Below, in pieces: positions 3,888 through 62,323 of a stretch of 64,000 nt of DNA. The notes under the pieces were generated by a model, which was not told the DNA's origin, did not search any database, and saw only the letters and a program-made list of their open reading frames with translations. Position numbers and translations under genes: made by a program. This stretch comes from Halopelagius fulvigenes (GTDB lineage Archaea > Halobacteriota > Halobacteria > Halobacteriales > Haloferacaceae): assembly GCF_042662625.1 (NCBI RefSeq), contig NZ_JBHSXH010000015.1, positions 973,909 to 1,037,908 on the forward strand, given 5' to 3'. The stretch's first letter is position 1, and the number at the start of each line of letters is the position of its first letter.

Positions 3888-3970
3888 TTCCGACCGCCTT
3901 TCTCCGATTTTTCGGCCCCGAGAGCGGTCAGCTTCGCTGGCTCGTGAGGCGGGAGCGGTGCCGTCCTATC

Positions 3971-4133
3971 GTACCGCGACGAGCGAGCGTCAGCGAGCGA
4001 GTCGCGGCCTTTTTGGGTCCAGCGTTTTTGGCGGGGTTCGAGGCGACGTCGCCGAACTTCGTTCGGCGGCCCACCGGACGCAGTCCGGTGACGGCATCGC
4101 CGTCGCCGAGGACCCCGTGAAAAAGGGTGGTTA
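3971..4133 (-). repeat. Structured intergenic repeat, copy A (long subtype). In element orientation: stop codon of GT4 gene - CCACCCTTTTT - GC-rich hairpin region - AAAAACGCTGGACCCAAAAAGGCCGCGACTCGCTCGCTGACGCTCGCTCGTCGCGGTAC
   Basis: Shares the ordered motifs with copies at 6484-6598, 35800-35875 and 62126-62215. Lies between convergent halocyanin and GT4 genes. The GT4 stop codon (TAA, c4131-4133) is immediately followed by CCACCCTTTTT. Confidence 0.7.
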
Positions 4134-5910: not shown

Positions 5911-6110
5911 ACGGGCGACTTCGAAAGGAACCGCCTTCCGTCTTCGGATTCCGGGCGGGGTTTCGCGGCGCGGTTCGGCCGCGTACGCGGTCAGTCGCCT
6001 ACTTCGACCGAAACGAGAATCGAGACGGCCTCCTACGGATTCGGGCCCCCACGTACACCGCTAACGCCCGGTAGAGACGATATTTAGCGGAGCGACGGTC
6101 GCTACTCGGT

Positions 6111-6509
6111 GTGCCCTCCTCGAAACGGATAGTCGCAGGGAGCGTGCTCGGAATCGCGTGGGGAGTCACCGAACCGAGGATGTTCGAGGGCTTCTTTTGG
6201 CTGCATCTGGCCGCGGCGGGGGCCGCGCTTGCCGTCCTCACCGTCGCGGTTGTCGGATACGGCCCCGTGAGACACCGGAACCTCGGGACGATTGCCGTCG
6301 TCCGGACGGTTACGACGGGGTCGTTCGCCGCCGGGTATCTCGTCTACGCCTACCGGTTCGGTTTGAGAGGTTCCCGGGTACGCCTCTGGCGGGACCGCTC
6401 CGACGAGTCGTCACCGGAGGTATCGTCAACCGCCGGCCGAGAGAACACCGCTGAGAGATGCTACGGGAAGTTCCGTACTGTACTGTACCGCGACGAGCGA
6501 ACGGAGTGA
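6111..6509 (+). CDS. hypothetical small membrane protein (doubtful)
   Basis: ORF with 2-3 hydrophobic segments. Its last ~25 codons and stop lie inside the conserved arm of repeat copy B, so it may be partly or wholly an artefact. Confidence 0.25.
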   Translation: MPSSKRIVAGSVLGIAWGVTEPRMFEGFFWLHLAAAGAALAVLTVAVVGYGPVRHRNLGTIAVVRTVTTGSFAAGYLVYAYRFGLRGSRVRLWRDRSDESSPEVSSTAGRENTAERCYGKFRTVLYRDERTE

Positions 6510-6598
6510 GCGAGTCGCGGCCTTTTTGGTCCAGATTTTTGGAGGGGGTTCGAGCGTGCTGGAGGCACGCGAGGACCCCCTCGAAAAAGGTGGGGGCG
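6484..6598 (-). repeat. Structured intergenic repeat, copy B (subtype with GGGGGTCCTCG...CGAACCCCC hairpin)
   Basis: Read on the minus strand: TAA (stop of G1P dehydrogenase) - CGCCCCCACCTTTTT - CGAGGGGGTCCTCGCGTGCCTCCAGCACGCTCGAACCCCCTCC (nested hairpin) - AAAAATCTGGACCAAAAAGGCCGCGACTCGCTCACTCCGTTCGCTCGTCGCGGTAC. Confidence 0.7.
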
Positions 6599-7645
6599 TT
6601 AGATTACGCCCGTGAACGTCGCAGCCTCTATCGCCGCCTCCTCACTGACGCCGTCGCCGAGGATGGTGTACCGGTCGCGGATAGTGTGGGCGGTGGTCAG
6701 CGCCTCGATGACCGTCTCGTCGGAGATACCGAGTTCCGAGGCGGTGGTGGGAGCGTCCATCGTATCGAGAGCGTCGCGGATGTCGCGCCACTCGCCCTGT
6801 TCGCCGCTGTGGAGGTACTCGGTCACGATGGACCCGACGCCGACTTGGTGGCCGTGGAGGGCGCGGCCGGGGACCAAGCGGTCGAGTTGGTGCGAGAAGA
6901 GGTGCTCCGCGCCGGAAGCGGGCCGCGAGGACCCCGAGATGGACATGGCGACACCCGAGGAGACGAGCGCTTTCACGACGACCCACGCGGACTCTTCGAG
7001 GCCCTTCTTGATGGAGTCCGAGTTGCCGACGAGCATCTCGGCGGTCATCTGCGAGAGCGCGCCCGAGTACTCCGAGTACTCGACGTTCTTCAGGCGGTGG
7101 GCGAGTTGCCAGTCTTTCACCGCGGTGTAGTTCGAGATGATGTCCGCGCATCCGGCGGTGGTGAGTTCCCACGGCGCGTCCGCGAGAATCTCCGTGTCGG
7201 CGACGACGGCCAACGGTGGGTCGGCGGCGACGGAGTGGCGGGTGTCGCCCTCCGGGATGGAGGACCGCCCGGAGACGATGCCGTCGTGACTCGCCGCCGT
7301 CGGCACGGAGATAAACCCGCAGTCGAGGCTGTCGGAGGCCATCTTCGCGGTGTCGATGGCCTTGCCGCCGCCGAGGGCGACGAGATAGCCCGCGTCCATC
7401 TCCCTTCCCGCCTCAATGACGCGTTCGACGGAGTCGAAGCTGGCCTCCGAGATGGTGATCGTCGTGGGGTCGTCGAACTGGGCGCGAACCCGGTCGCCCG
7501 CGATGTCGTTCGGCGTCGGACTCGTCACCAGTAGCGGCCGCCCCGAGAGGTAGAGTTCCCCCACCGCCGCAGAGAGTTCGTCCAACACCCCGTGGCCCAC
7601 GAGGACGTTCCGCGGGAGCTGAATCCACGTCGATTTGTCGAACAT
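6599..7645 (-). CDS. egsA: sn-glycerol-1-phosphate dehydrogenase [NAD(P)+] (archaeal ether-lipid backbone synthesis)
   Basis: Strong family resemblance (iron-containing ADH/DHQ-synthase-like fold; GGGKAIDTAKMAS..., HGHQVGVGS...). Start taken at the second Met (MFDKSTWIQLPRNV). Confidence 0.85.
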   Translation of the reverse strand: MFDKSTWIQLPRNVLVGHGVLDELSAAVGELYLSGRPLLVTSPTPNDIAGDRVRAQFDDPTTITISEASFDSVERVIEAGREMDAGYLVALGGGKAIDTAKMASDSLDCGFISVPTAASHDGIVSGRSSIPEGDTRHSVAADPPLAVVADTEILADAPWELTTAGCADIISNYTAVKDWQLAHRLKNVEYSEYSGALSQMTAEMLVGNSDSIKKGLEESAWVVVKALVSSGVAMSISGSSRPASGAEHLFSHQLDRLVPGRALHGHQVGVGSIVTEYLHSGEQGEWRDIRDALDTMDAPTTASELGISDETVIEALTTAHTIRDRYTILGDGVSEEAAIEAATFTGVI

Positions 7646-33951: not shown

Positions 33952-35799
33952 ATGGGTCGTCCGACCGCAAGCAACGCGGTCGACGCTTCACGCGCCGTCG
34001 AAGTGAGCGTCGTCCTTCCCGCGTACAACGAAGAGAACACTATCGAACGGACCGTCGAGACGACGCTCTCGGCGCTCTCTTCGTTCCTCCCCGACGACGC
34101 CTTCGAGGTCATCGTCGCCGAAGACGGCTGTTCGGACCGAACGCCCGAACTGGCCGAAGAGATGGCCGCCGCCGACCCGCGCGTCCGCCACTTCCACAGC
34201 GACGAACGGTTGGGGCGCGGCGGCGCACTCGAACACGCGTTCGAGGCGGCCGCGGGCGACGTTCTCGTCTACTTCGACACCGACCTCGCGACGGACATGC
34301 GACACCTCGAAGAACTGGTCGAACGCGTGCGCTCGGGCGACTGCGACGTCGCCACCGGGTCGCGGTGGATGCCGGAGAACGTCGCCGACCGGCCCGCCAA
34401 GCGCGGCGTGCCGAGTCGCGCGTACAACGTCCTCGTGCGCCTCTTCCTCCAGTCCGACCTCCGGGACCACCAGTGCGGCTTCAAGGCGTTCTCCCGGGAG
34501 GTGTTCGAGACGCTCCGCGACGGTGTGGAGGACGAACACTGGTTCTGGGACACGGAGATGCTCGTCCGCGCCCAACGCGAGGGGTTCGAGGTCGGCGAGT
34601 TCGCCGTCGATTGGACGCCGCAGAGCGACACGAAGGTGGACCTCGTCCGCGACGTGTTCGGCATGGGGAGCCAGATACTTCGGGCGTGGTGGCAGCTGTC
34701 GGTTCGCCCGCGCATCACGCGCAGAGTCGCGTTAGTCGCCGGCGCGGTCCTGACCGTCGCCGCGATGCTTCTCATGACGCAGTACATCGACTTCGGGGCC
34801 GTCCTCTCGGAGGTCAGGCAGGCCGACATGACCTTCGTCGCCGTCGCCACCGTCATCTACATCCTCTCGTGGCCCGTCCGCGGCGTCCGCTACCGCGACA
34901 TCCTCGAAGAGTTGGGCTACCGGGAGAAGGCGAGCTTTCTCACCGGCGCGGTGTTCATCAGTCAGACCGGGAACCTCGTGTTCCCCGCGCGCGCGGGCGA
35001 CCTCATCCGCGCGTACGTGGTGAAGGCGCGGCGTGGCATCCCCTACCCGACGGGGTTCGCCTCCCTCGCGGCCGAACGCGTCTTCGACCTCCTCACGATA
35101 GCCGGCATGGCGGGCGTCGTCCTCGTGGGCTACACCGTGACCGGAGAGACCGCCGAACTGGCGGCGACGCTCGTCGGCGCGGAGGAGGCCGGGCTGGTCG
35201 CCGTCGTCGTCGCGACACTCGTCGGTCTGGCCGCCGTCGTCGCCGTCGCCGTCATCGCCCTCACCGCCCGGTCGGACAGCAACTTCGCGGGGAGTCTCGT
35301 CCGCCGGGCGAGTTCCGACTCCTACGCGGAGTACGTCGCGGGCGTCGTCGAACGGTTCGCGGGCGACTTGCAGACCGTCGCCGGGACGCGACGCGGGTTC
35401 GCCCGCGTCGGCGCGTCGAGCGTCGTCATCTGGACGCTGGACGTCATCACGGCGGTCGTCATCCTCGCGGCGTTCGACCCCGGACTCGGAGTCGTCGAAC
35501 TCCTCGCCGTCGGCTTCTTCGCCGTCAGCGTCGGCAACCTCGCGAAGGTGCTCCCCCTCTCGCCCGGCGGCGTCGGCCTCTACGAAGGCGCGTTCACCCT
35601 GCTGGTCATGGGCCTGACCGACGTGGGCCCCTCCATCGCCATCGGCGCGGCGGTGCTCGACCACGCGCTGAAGAACGTCATCACCATCATCGGCGGGTAC
35701 GCCTCGATGATCGGCCTGAACGTCTCCCTGACGACCGCCGTCGAGGAGACGCGCGACGTGAAAGACGCCCCCGAGGGAGCGGCGAAACTCGACGACTGA
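33952..35799 (+). CDS. AglD-like glycosyltransferase: N-terminal GT2 (dolichyl-phosphate hexose synthase-like) fused to C-terminal multi-TM lysylphosphatidylglycerol-synthase-like (flippase-like) domain
   Basis: GT2 motifs (VSVVLPAYNEE, EVIVAEDGCSDRT, DTD, QCGFKAF) followed by 8 or more TM helices. Confidence 0.75.
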   Translation: MGRPTASNAVDASRAVEVSVVLPAYNEENTIERTVETTLSALSSFLPDDAFEVIVAEDGCSDRTPELAEEMAAADPRVRHFHSDERLGRGGALEHAFEAAAGDVLVYFDTDLATDMRHLEELVERVRSGDCDVATGSRWMPENVADRPAKRGVPSRAYNVLVRLFLQSDLRDHQCGFKAFSREVFETLRDGVEDEHWFWDTEMLVRAQREGFEVGEFAVDWTPQSDTKVDLVRDVFGMGSQILRAWWQLSVRPRITRRVALVAGAVLTVAAMLLMTQYIDFGAVLSEVRQADMTFVAVATVIYILSWPVRGVRYRDILEELGYREKASFLTGAVFISQTGNLVFPARAGDLIRAYVVKARRGIPYPTGFASLAAERVFDLLTIAGMAGVVLVGYTVTGETAELAATLVGAEEAGLVAVVVATLVGLAAVVAVAVIALTARSDSNFAGSLVRRASSDSYAEYVAGVVERFAGDLQTVAGTRRGFARVGASSVVIWTLDVITAVVILAAFDPGLGVVELLAVGFFAVSVGNLAKVLPLSPGGVGLYEGAFTLLVMGLTDVGPSIAIGAAVLDHALKNVITIIGGYASMIGLNVSLTTAVEETRDVKDAPEGAAKLDD

Positions 35800-35875
35800 T
35801 ACCCACCTTTTTCTGCTTCGGGTGCGCTTCGCGCACCCTCACCGCAAAAATCTGGACCAAAAAGGCCGACTCAGC
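35800..35875 (+). repeat. Structured intergenic repeat, copy C (short subtype): TGA(stop) - TACCCACCTTTTTCTGCTTC - GGGTGCGC-TTC-GCGCACCC hairpin - TCACCGC - AAAAATCTGGACCAAAAAGGCCG
   Basis: Perfect 8 bp stem with a 3 nt loop. Same motif order as copies A, B and D. Lies between convergent AglD-like (+) and YjjX-like (-) genes. Confidence 0.7.
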
Positions 35876-35937
35876 CGTCGAAGACGGCTTCGTCGGTGAA
35901 CCGCACGCCTTCGGCGCGCGGATGTTCTTACGGCCAA

Positions 35938-36447
35938 CTACCGATACAACTCGCTCACGAACGGCGCGAGGGCCGCCGTCACCGCCGATTCGAGCGCGTC
36001 CGTCCGGGACATCCGGCCGCCGGTGAACGCGCCGGCCGCGCCCTGCTTCTTTGCCACGTCTTCGGTCCCGAGAACGTCGTCCATCACCGGCCCGAGTTCC
36101 TCGCCGGCCCGCACCCTGTCCGCGATTCGGTCGGGGAGGCGCAGGCTCGGCCCCGCGCCGTACCCCGTCGTCTCGCCGTCGGTGACGGCGGCCCACATCA
36201 CCAAGAACAGGTCGTCGGACCCCTCGAAGGAGGCCACACCCCCCTCGATGCCGACGCCGAAGTCGTACGCGCCCGCGTCGAGGGCGGCGACGGCGCGGTT
36301 CTCCGCGCCGGTGCGCGTCTCCGCGTGCCCCGTCGGTTGCTCCGAGACGCCCGAGGGCACGGACTCGGACGCCACGGTCGCCTCGTCGAAGGCGCGTTCC
36401 GTCGCGTCACGCTTCACCGGATTTCCGCTGCCGACTGCGACTCGCAT
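35938..36447 (-). CDS. inosine/xanthosine triphosphatase (non-canonical NTP pyrophosphatase, YjjX/DUF84 family)
   Basis: MRVAVGSGNPVKRDATERAF... family-typical N-terminus; 169 aa. Confidence 0.6.
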   Translation of the reverse strand: MRVAVGSGNPVKRDATERAFDEATVASESVPSGVSEQPTGHAETRTGAENRAVAALDAGAYDFGVGIEGGVASFEGSDDLFLVMWAAVTDGETTGYGAGPSLRLPDRIADRVRAGEELGPVMDDVLGTEDVAKKQGAAGAFTGGRMSRTDALESAVTAALAPFVSELYR

Positions 36448-61711: not shown

Positions 61712-62125
61712 ATGGAGGTCTACACGGTGGAAATCTCAGATAAACTCCTGTGTCTGTTCAACACCGACGTGCGCGCGGAAGACGACCGATACGTGGTCGA
61801 AGTTCCCAAGCGCGAAGTCGAGGCCGGAACCGTCGAACCCGGCGAGACGTACCGCGTCGCTCTCATCTCTCGCGAAGTGACCGAAGAGGAGGAGGCGACC
61901 GAACCCAGCGGAACCTCGAGCGAACCGCAACCGCCGGTCGAGGTGGGCGAACTGCGCTACGTCGAGATAGAGGACATCGGCAAGCAGGGCGACGGCATCG
62001 CCCGCGTCGAACGGGGCTACGTCATCATCGTCCCCGGCGCACAGGTCGGGGACCGAGTCAAGATAGAGGTCACGGAAGTCAAGTCCAACTTCGCCGTCGG
62101 CGAAGTCATCGAGGAGGACTTCTAA
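61712..62125 (+). CDS. TRAM-domain protein (two TRAM-like beta-barrel halves)
   Basis: ...YVEIEDIGKQGDGIARVERGYVIIVPGAQVGDRVKIEVTEV... Confidence 0.55.
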   Translation: MEVYTVEISDKLLCLFNTDVRAEDDRYVVEVPKREVEAGTVEPGETYRVALISREVTEEEEATEPSGTSSEPQPPVEVGELRYVEIEDIGKQGDGIARVERGYVIIVPGAQVGDRVKIEVTEVKSNFAVGEVIEEDF

Positions 62126-62215
62126 CCACCTTTTTACGGTTCGGGTGCGCGAAGCGCACCGCTCGCCGTGAAAATCTGGACCAAAAAGCCGCGCCTCGCT
62201 ATCGCTCGCTCGGCG
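62126..62215 (+). repeat. Structured intergenic repeat, copy D (short subtype): TAA(stop) - CCACCTTTTTACGGTTC - GGGTGCGC-GAA-GCGCACC hairpin - GCTCGCCGTG - AAAATCTGGACCAAAAAGCCGCGCCTCGCTATCGCTCGCTCGGCGCGG
   Basis: Same stem as copy C, but the loop is the complement (GAA versus TTC). Confidence 0.7.
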
Positions 62216-62323
62216 CGGGACAACTGCGGGCGACCGGCACGGCGTCGTCTTCGGCCATCTGCGGACTCTCTCCGGTCGGACGACCGGAAACTGTTTTGTG
62301 GGATTCGAACACACCGTTGAAGT

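Follow-up and report, generated by a model that had tools for sequence, protein, structure and literature searches.

A composite palindromic element was found in four copies in the 64-kb window (the whole stretch of DNA analyzed here), and the same element recurs beside the ends of genes in many genera of Halobacteria. Judged from its sequence, the element is most likely a compact two-way terminator at the 3′ ends of transcription units.

The four copies in the window

Copies A and B lie on the minus strand and copies C and D on the plus strand, and all four were found at the places given by the initial annotation. When aligned in one orientation they share the order of parts that had been described for them, namely a stop codon, CCACC(C)TTTTT, a GC-rich hairpin, AAAA(A)-TCTGGACC-AAAAAG, and a second hairpin, with copy A having CGCTGGACCC; the proposed division into two hairpin subtypes, A/B and C/D, was also recovered. 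Copies B, C, and D contain one and the same 18-mer core, AAAATCTGGACCAAAAAG (three occurrences observed against 0.01 expected, a count that none of 100 shuffles reached), and the core of copy A is the variant AAAAACGCTGGACCCAAAAAG. Matches to CCACCTTTTT with at most one mismatch are restricted, within the window, to the four copies. Scanning of the window with the covariance model described below gave scores of 81.7 bits for D, 78.2 for C, and 46.5 for B, showed that the hairpin of copy A is split by a nested insertion of ~60 nt, and detected no clear copy beyond the known ones. Single-strand DNA folding z-scores were −4.5 for A, −5.4 for B, −3.9 for C, and −1.1 for a truncated D.

Copy C is a plus-strand composite element spanning 35803-35924, so that its end lies at ~35924 and not at 35875 as had been proposed; copy D likewise reaches ~62220. 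The T5 run of copy C (T5C, 35808-35812), the putative plus-strand terminator, begins 9 nt past the TGA stop (35797-35799) of a gene encoding a GT2/LPG_synthase_TM fusion protein. The main hairpin (P1 and P2, GGGTGCGC-TTC-GCGCACC, 35813-35845) is closed by T5/A5, and an outer pairing joins CCA at 35803-35805 to TGG at 35853-35855. The core, A5-TCTGGACC-A5-G (35846-35864), reads CTTTTTGGTCCAGATTTTT on the minus strand. Folding placed a second hairpin, P3, at 35865-35897 (CCGAC..GTCGG with a nested GCCGTC-GAAG-ACGGC), and it is followed by a third hairpin module, GAACCGC..GCGGATG (35898-35924), which recurs in many copies elsewhere. The minus strand of copy C offers two T5 runs to the convergent DUF84 NTPase gene, whose stop lies at 35938-35940, and a simple scan flags a hairpin plus T-run site on this strand.

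Copy D (62126-62220, plus strand) begins directly after the stop codon of a TRAM gene (62123-62125) and comprises CCACC (62126-62130), T5 (62131-62135), a hairpin (62136-62169), GAAAA (62170-62174), the core TCTGGACC (62175-62182), A5-G (62183-62188), and a second hairpin, CCGCGCC..GGCGCGG (62189-62218). On the minus strand, copy A (3972-4130) abuts the stop codon of a GT4 gene (4131-4133) and is made up of CCACCC (4125-4130), T5 (4120-4124), a long nested hairpin (4030-4119), A5 (4025-4029), the core variant CGCTGGACCC (4015-4024), a further A5 (4010-4014), and a second hairpin, GGCCGCGAC..GTCGCGGTAC (3972-4009). Copy B (6484-6593, minus strand) has CCACC at 6589-6593, 5 nt from the egsA stop codon (6599-6601), followed by T5 (6584-6588), a hairpin (6541-6583), A5 (6536-6540), the core TCTGGACC (6528-6535), A5-G (6522-6527), and a second hairpin (6486-6521).

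The names first given to the genes that end at the copies agree with Pfam for GT4 (A), the GT2 + LPG_synthase_TM fusion (C), and TRAM (D), and with homology for EgsA (B), the window protein being 95% identical to EgsA of Halopelagius inordinatus. In all four cases the T5 run starts 5-14 nt past the stop codon. The statement that three of the four copies sit between convergent genes was upheld where copy A meets the halocyanin gene and copy C the DUF84 NTPase gene; at B the convergent partner is an unsupported 132-aa ORF (6111-6509), and at D the next gene, encoding a SHOCT-domain protein, is co-directional. The window, at 68% GC, has 25 runs of at least five T or A, 11 of them inside the four copies, and many of its convergent gene pairs have no element.

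Some further features of these loci were observed. The stop codon of the 132-aa ORF falls within the loop of the second hairpin of copy B. What lies between the egsA element and the DUF420 gene differs from genome to genome (window 5911-6509; L119 4050-4890; L117 5048-5302): the window has the 132-aa ORF, a metagenomic relative has an Ig_halo gene and, inverted, one further element containing a T10 run, and H. inordinatus has neither. Beside copy A, a degenerate element-like sequence (3908-3952, minus strand, CCGCC..hairpin..TCGGGGCCGAAAAA) adjoins the end of the halocyanin gene; it may be an older, decayed copy, and its match is weak (10.9 bits, E 0.8).

Anatomy and base pairing

The MFE folds of ~70 distinct copies gave a common design, in which T5/A5 pairing is followed by a helix of 3-5 bp (P1), an internal loop with TCG on the 5′ side and (A/G)CTC on the 3′ side, a second helix (P2, GGGT..ACC), and a variable apex that is often a perfect palindrome. 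Paired cells made up 88.5% of a model-guided alignment compared with 53-66% when partners were slid, and 255 double-change cells were counted against 93 ± 8 in shuffles. Helix P2 was 94% paired, with compensatory changes in six of its seven pairs. A model-fitted alignment leans towards the structure of its model, but the same picture came from the slid controls and from the independent MFE folds, and the hand-made seed alignment was 83% paired against 44-55% in its control.

Pairing extends outwards to the left terminus, where CCA pairs with TGG of the core, variants are compensatory (GCA/TGC and GGA/TCC), and core variants carry a fourth outer pair, C-G or T-A. On the evidence of this compensatory pairing, everything from CCA to TGG forms a single long imperfect palindrome, with the conserved TCTGG as its 3′ arm. 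The layout of the whole is CCA-xx-T5-(P1, internal loop, P2)-A5-xx-TGG, then ACC-A5-G, then one or two hairpins. The initial annotation had drawn attention to ~40 nt of conservation beyond what a terminator needs; part of this is the 3′ arm of the outer helix, in which CCA pairs with TGG.

The second hairpin has a constant CCG..CGG base with 68 different stem extensions in 98 copies, a pyrimidine-rich loop (TCGCTCACTNCGTTCGCTC), and a perfect stem of at least 6 bp in 43 of the 98 copies, against 15% of shuffles. The third module, GAACCGC-hairpin-GCGGAYG, is present in many copies, copy C included. Separately, it was observed that the loop motif of the second hairpin, TCACTNCGTTCG, recurs at the main-hairpin apex of some copies (L060, L049, and L020); by this shared motif, the small hairpin module appears to be nested into larger hairpins.

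Mismatches of the G·T and A·C kinds were about balanced (38 and 27, respectively), which argues, at the level of sequence, for a constraint on both DNA strands over the structure of a single RNA. The strand-specific pattern in which G·U is tolerated and A·C is not was absent from the pairing.

Range of the family

An exact 18-mer scan of a species-representative genome collection returned at least 116 loci. Among those listed, at least ~90 belong to Halobacteria and cover at least 25 named genera in several families, including Haloferax, Halobellus, Halogeometricum, Haloprofundus, Natrinema, Natronococcus, Haloterrigena, Natronorubrum, Haloarcula, Halosimplex, Halorientalis, Halomarina, Halorhabdus, Halococcus, Salarchaeum, Halarchaeum, Halohasta, and Natronomonas; the listed loci outside Halobacteria were chance matches or a Streptococcus gene. 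In 74 of the 97 haloarchaeal occurrences listed, CCACCTTTTT lies 39-106 nt upstream of the 18-mer, and CCACCTTTT was found upstream of the core at a commonest distance of 43-54 nt (again 74 of the 97 listed). The ordered architecture of the window copies is visible by eye at loci in other genera. It had been argued that the absence of further copies would reduce the element to a coincidence between a few terminators, and this number of loci shows instead that the structured family is real. A chance likeness of four independent terminators, which would account for the shared T-runs only, is thereby already refuted and has next to no probability, given the three exact cores in the window against 0.01 expected and the same ordered architecture at no fewer than ~90 loci elsewhere.

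A covariance model was built from 22 copies using a hand-annotated seed alignment, as hairpin length varies among copies and a plain MAFFT alignment was unsuited to RNAalifold. The model gave 109 matches in 750 kb of haloarchaeal DNA, and ~18 of these were not seeded by the 18-mer, equivalent to about one extra copy per 40 kb. The density in the window is one copy per 16 kb, and extrapolation suggests copy numbers of the order of one hundred per genome. Core variants found among the unseeded copies and at orthologous sites include CGTGGGCG, CATGGGTG, CCTGGAGGG, CACGGAGGG, and TCTGCACC. Because the sample was seeded with, and is biased towards, the exact 18-mer and such variants exist elsewhere, the perfect conservation of the core within it is an ascertainment effect.

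Exact-core matches in viral contigs were confined to unrelated low-GC phages, and a plasmid BLAST with the element gave two weak matches only. Rfam gave no match at gathering score in the window and nothing relevant at E ≤ 1 in six loci. The suggestion that the element is undescribed was borne out in Rfam and in the searchable full-text literature, where keywords retrieved no description of it and the motif string retrieved chance primer matches only; many subscription papers lie outside that scope, and an earlier description may exist among them.

Relation to gene ends and predicted termination

Position statistics were gathered for the 83 copies with enough flanking sequence. The stop codon of a same-strand coding-like ORF lies within 40 nt upstream of CCACC in 24 of them (29%), 20 at a distance of 0-6 nt, and a convergent gene stops within 220 nt beyond the core in 58 (70%), most often at 20-40 nt, just past the second hairpin. 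Both arrangements are present at 13 copies, and at least one gene 3′ end adjoins 69. Three copies begin 0-2 nt past a tRNA-Ala or tRNA-Ser gene (L032 7544-7685, L061 2295-2436, and L075 5118-5272). At these tRNA sites, it was observed that the CCA of the element sits about where the CCA end of the tRNA would be.

At the etfA gene of Haloferax gibbonsii the core side of the element faces the gene, 9 nt past its stop, and at etfA of H. volcanii (L136 2954-3010) there is a decayed copy in reversed orientation with a run of only T4 (AACC-TTTT..AAAA-GCTTCACC-AAAAA). Together with the 29%/70% split, these reversed copies indicate that the element marks transcription-unit 3′ ends in either orientation and is not a module bound to the gene upstream of CCACC. 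The initial annotation had read it as a stop-codon-adjacent 3′ module in fixed orientation to its gene. Adjacency is true of all four window copies but of only the 29% minority across the family, and 58 of 83 copies face a convergent stop from the core side, so the reading lacks support in the form first given. Fixed orientation is at odds with the two opposite orientations at one etfA site in close Haloferax species.

Forty mapped haloarchaeal transcript 3′ ends were reported to have a pentaU, often preceded by a stem-loop (Brenneis 2007; PMC2151090), and T5C was reported to end 95% of transcripts in vivo in H. volcanii (Berkemer 2020; PMC7237163). The plus strand of the element presents CCACC-TTTTT-C at its entry side and the minus strand reads second hairpin-CTTTTT-GGTCCAGA-TTTTT, so that a run of at least five T lies on the sense strand just past the transcription unit. 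RNA polymerase arriving from either side would meet a sense-strand T5 before the palindrome, and from the core side it would meet a stem-loop with T5 and then a second T5. As oligo-T is the established archaeal terminator and a T5 stands at each entry, two-way termination is predicted, and the T-tracts on both strands thus fit the bidirectional terminator first proposed.

The element resembles the haloarchaeal pentaU terminators in having T5 soon past a stop codon and, on the core side, T5 preceded by a stem-loop. It differs from them in being one family with conserved termini, a palindrome between opposed T-runs, and extra hairpins in many genera; the stem-loops at haloarchaeal 3′ ends were described in those reports as having no conserved sequence or structure (PMC2151090, PMC7237163). 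Since archaeal termination needs the T-run alone, the conservation of the palindrome, CCACC, and GGACC is unexplained by a terminator role, and since the T-run precedes the main hairpin on both strands, this hairpin is no bacterial-style terminator stem. Behind the palindrome and the non-T bases there may be a bound protein, a role as roadblock or insulator, or the mode of copying.

Duplicated gene ends beside the element

A direct duplication (T) of 28-180 nt with 80-100% identity flanks 36-37 nonredundant copies of the element (E) among ~85-100, several of them in complete chromosomes. It is the right duplicate that forms the genuine 3′ end of the convergent gene, and the left is a fragment that stops at CCACC; the duplication starts at or near the stop codon or takes in the second hairpin. 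The genes concerned have housekeeping roles, encoding EtfA, thiolase, malic enzyme, ArgF, citrate synthase, HisF, PurH, PheT, IleRS, DapD, and others. No flank duplication was found at any of the ~24 stop-adjacent copies or at the four window copies, and the duplicating process is therefore polar.

The joints follow a rule, in that the left duplicate carries an insertion of 1-2 nt (G, A, GG, or AG) followed by 2-6 gene-continuing nucleotides up to CCACC. This rule holds at 22 of 37 joints (L013, L045, L055, and L035 are examples of joints), while in permutation controls it held at 4.7 on average and at no more than 11. Neither the duplication of gene ends nor the insertion of 1-2 purines follows from terminator function. 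Arrays of the form T-E-T-E-T were found at three loci (L028, L037, and L068), with elements that are partly identical and partly of different subtypes.

Natronorubrum, Halosimplex, and Natribaculum share one joint, CCAGCGTCTC|agaa|CCACC in a DPH6-like gene; different genera also have joints in common in PurH, ArgF, and an MBL hydrolase. Duplicates within a genome are 88-100% identical, compared with 72-90% for orthologous gene ends between genomes. Either these are old events in which gene conversion has kept the duplicates alike, or the same sites have been used repeatedly.

The citrate synthase locus of Haloarcula regularis (L037 5000-5560) has three copies of the gene end. In its two pseudo-copies, a common 14-nt stretch past the duplicate departs from the live gene at each third position, resembling synonymous divergence, and the remainder is nearly identical, a pattern that suggests patchy gene conversion. 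At a locus in Haloferax gibbonsii (L063 1350-1560) the duplicated piece belongs to a co-directional gene lying downstream and is its 5′ end (ATG..), not a 3′ end.

Simple tandem duplication of the element together with the gene end was considered as an origin and judged insufficient, since the H. regularis array mixes core subtypes; it is strained too by L019, where a decayed element stands beside a 100% identical duplicate. The evidence for gene conversion weakens this counter-argument, and the model therefore keeps some standing. A diversity-generating retroelement, an integron attC site, and a CRISPR-like system were dropped: reverse transcriptase or integrase context is lacking, the genes are housekeeping genes, and the orientation rules differ.

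Turnover and exchange between copies

The comparison of orthologous sites called for by the initial annotation revealed the egsA and GT4 sites as occupied, decayed, or empty according to genus. Both are occupied in Halopelagius (H. inordinatus) and in a metagenomic relative, and that at egsA also in a Haloferax; they are decayed or unrecognizable in Halogeometricum borinquense and empty in Halobellus and Halorubrum. The possibility that the element supplies a TTCTAA stop codon was ruled out, as element-free GT4 orthologs still end ..DYGWF-TGA.

The hairpin type at one site can differ between close relatives while sites within a genome are alike. In L119, two hairpins are 81% identical to each other and only 60% identical to the window ortholog, and the second hairpin at the GT4 site of the window has 97% identity to that of the H. 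inordinatus egsA site and 82% to its own ortholog. Likeness between different sites in excess of orthologous likeness indicates, as far as sequence comparison goes, that copies within a genome exchange sequence.

In Halobellus ordinarius ZY16, at least seven near-identical units of ~300 nt contain the element between unrelated flanks (L002, L021, L025, L077, L084, L101, and L103, several at contig ends). Each comprises ~35 nt on the left, a three-hairpin element, and an AT-richer tail of ~90 nt ending ..TTCTATAACACCCTG. Together they suggest that a larger composite repeat has recently multiplied in a burst.

Discussion

Our preferred reading, held with modest confidence, is that the element is a REP/BIME-like palindromic repeat that forms a bidirectional oligo-T terminator and is renewed or spread by recombination at the foot of the palindrome, the terminator part being more secure than the copying mechanism. 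It shares with bacterial REP/BIME sequences a short, imperfect, GC-rich palindrome in many extragenic copies, mostly at 3′ ends or between convergent genes, with pairing that is conserved while sequence drifts, lineage-specific variants, and composite hairpin arrays. REP/BIME sequences affect termination and mRNA ends and promote local rearrangements. By the usual description of such repeats the element qualifies in being an imperfect palindrome of tens of nucleotides, extragenic, and numerous, at an extrapolated frequency of about one per 16-40 kb. It departs from them in being archaeal and in its T5/A5 framing, which is suited to an oligo-T terminator, and its terminus is CCACC, not the GTAG-like 5′ tetranucleotide that is cleaved by the RAYT transposase in REP sequences. 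Duplication of adjacent gene 3′ ends is, to our knowledge, no described feature of REP.

Like REP/BIME repeats, the palindrome keeps its pairing while its sequence turns over. Renewal would start from a break or nick at the foot of the hairpin (CCACC), and recombinational or microhomology-mediated repair with gene conversion would then renew and spread the element; these two steps are the least certain. Haloarchaea are polyploid. The joints bear a likeness to palindrome-driven rearrangement, in which hairpins or cruciforms are cleaved and templates switched at inverted repeats. The novel joint coincides exactly with the foot of the palindrome and, like a repaired break, shows microhomology (2-6 nt) and 1-2 added nucleotides. 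This likeness is an analogy, known here from the sequence of the joints.

Readings that give the element a mobility of its own must be weighed against this. It is possible, if rather doubtful, that it is mobile or self-renewing DNA of a new kind, a palindromic terminator cassette, which would enter the 3′ coding ends of housekeeping genes in one polarity, with a duplication of 28-180 nt rebuilding the gene end and its stop codon; a structure-specific nick at the CCACC foot and an enzyme of the host or of the element would drive entry. Unlikely as well, and a little more so, is a nonautonomous MITE-like element that would be moved in trans by an enzyme conserved in Halobacteria and inserted within the last 30-180 nt of genes, with a long target duplication restoring the gene end and terminator activity as a side effect making insertions tolerable. 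The termini are defined and conserved, with CCACC on one side and a hairpin with GGTAC on the other; 36-37 copies have direct duplications, the left one ending right at CCACC; polarity is strict, the pseudo-copy always lying on the CCACC side and none of the ~24 stop-adjacent copies being duplicated; arrays mix element subtypes (L037, L068); and cut-site contexts recur, such as ..CGTCTC in three unrelated genes. Like MITEs and Correia elements and the MITE, SMR, and PATE sequences of Haloquadratum, the element is small, noncoding, multicopy, intergenic, and hairpin-forming, and the seven or more near-identical ~300-nt units of Halobellus ordinarius stand in unrelated contexts. MITEs, however, make short duplications of fixed length and have inverted ends shared with a parent IS, whereas the duplications here, at 28-180 nt, are far longer and more variable than known transposase footprints, are polar, and copy a gene end, and neither a parent element nor a moving enzyme has a known candidate. 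Joints common to several genera and within-genome duplicates of 88-100% identity point to old events with gene conversion, elements within one array share patches of identity, and matches on viral contigs and plasmids are limited to the unrelated low-GC phages and the two weak plasmid hits. An origin as a PATE derived from IS200/IS605 was rejected: the element has hairpins, but long flanking duplications are common beside it, and the PATEs and SMRs of Haloquadratum give no target duplication (PMC3119063). The mobile MITE-like unit suggested by the initial annotation thus retains its repeat-like and mobile-like signs and loses the fixed short target duplication.

Two further readings set mobility aside. 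A DNA-level protein-binding or cruciform site, serving nucleoid organization, replication, or topology control with incidental T-runs, is very unlikely. Gyrase and IHF do use REP/BIME in bacteria, and the palindromic constraint on both strands, the conserved non-T motifs (CCACC, the TCGGG/CC(A/G)CTC internal loop, and GGACC), and a roughly regular spacing of one copy per 16-40 kb would suit such a site. It has no known binding protein, though, its core varies between lineages, and the link to gene 3′ ends with strict T5/A5 framing is better explained by termination. Apart from chance, the least plausible reading is that of a structured RNA, either a 3′-UTR stabilizer or the 3′-UTR-derived small RNA raised earlier, with the hairpins acting as RNA. 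Covariation in three helices and location right after stop codons would be expected of it, and on the minus strand the second hairpin fits the stem-loop plus pentaU that often ends haloarchaeal 3′ UTRs (PMC2151090). Against this, Rfam holds no related family even at E ≤ 1, mismatches are strand-symmetric, with G·T and A·C equally frequent, both orientations to genes are used, and tRNA genes also precede the element. The T5 upstream of the main hairpin on both strands means, moreover, that most transcripts should stop before reaching it.

Dispersed palindromic repeats and oligo-T terminators are kinds already known; the searchable literature describes no such palindromic repeat family in archaea. 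Transcription termination in archaea is still poorly understood, and a conserved two-way terminator in many genera, if confirmed as such, would be a defined and easily mutated substrate on which the roles of the T-run, the palindrome, and the conserved bases could be separated. Some of the difficulties in annotating and assembling haloarchaeal genomes trace back to these repeats and to the pseudo-copies of gene ends. The duplication of gene ends is a distinct rearrangement signature that could reveal a new pathway of repair or mobility, and, should the terminator cassette reading prove true, Halobacteria would acquire and refresh their terminators by a dedicated copying mechanism.
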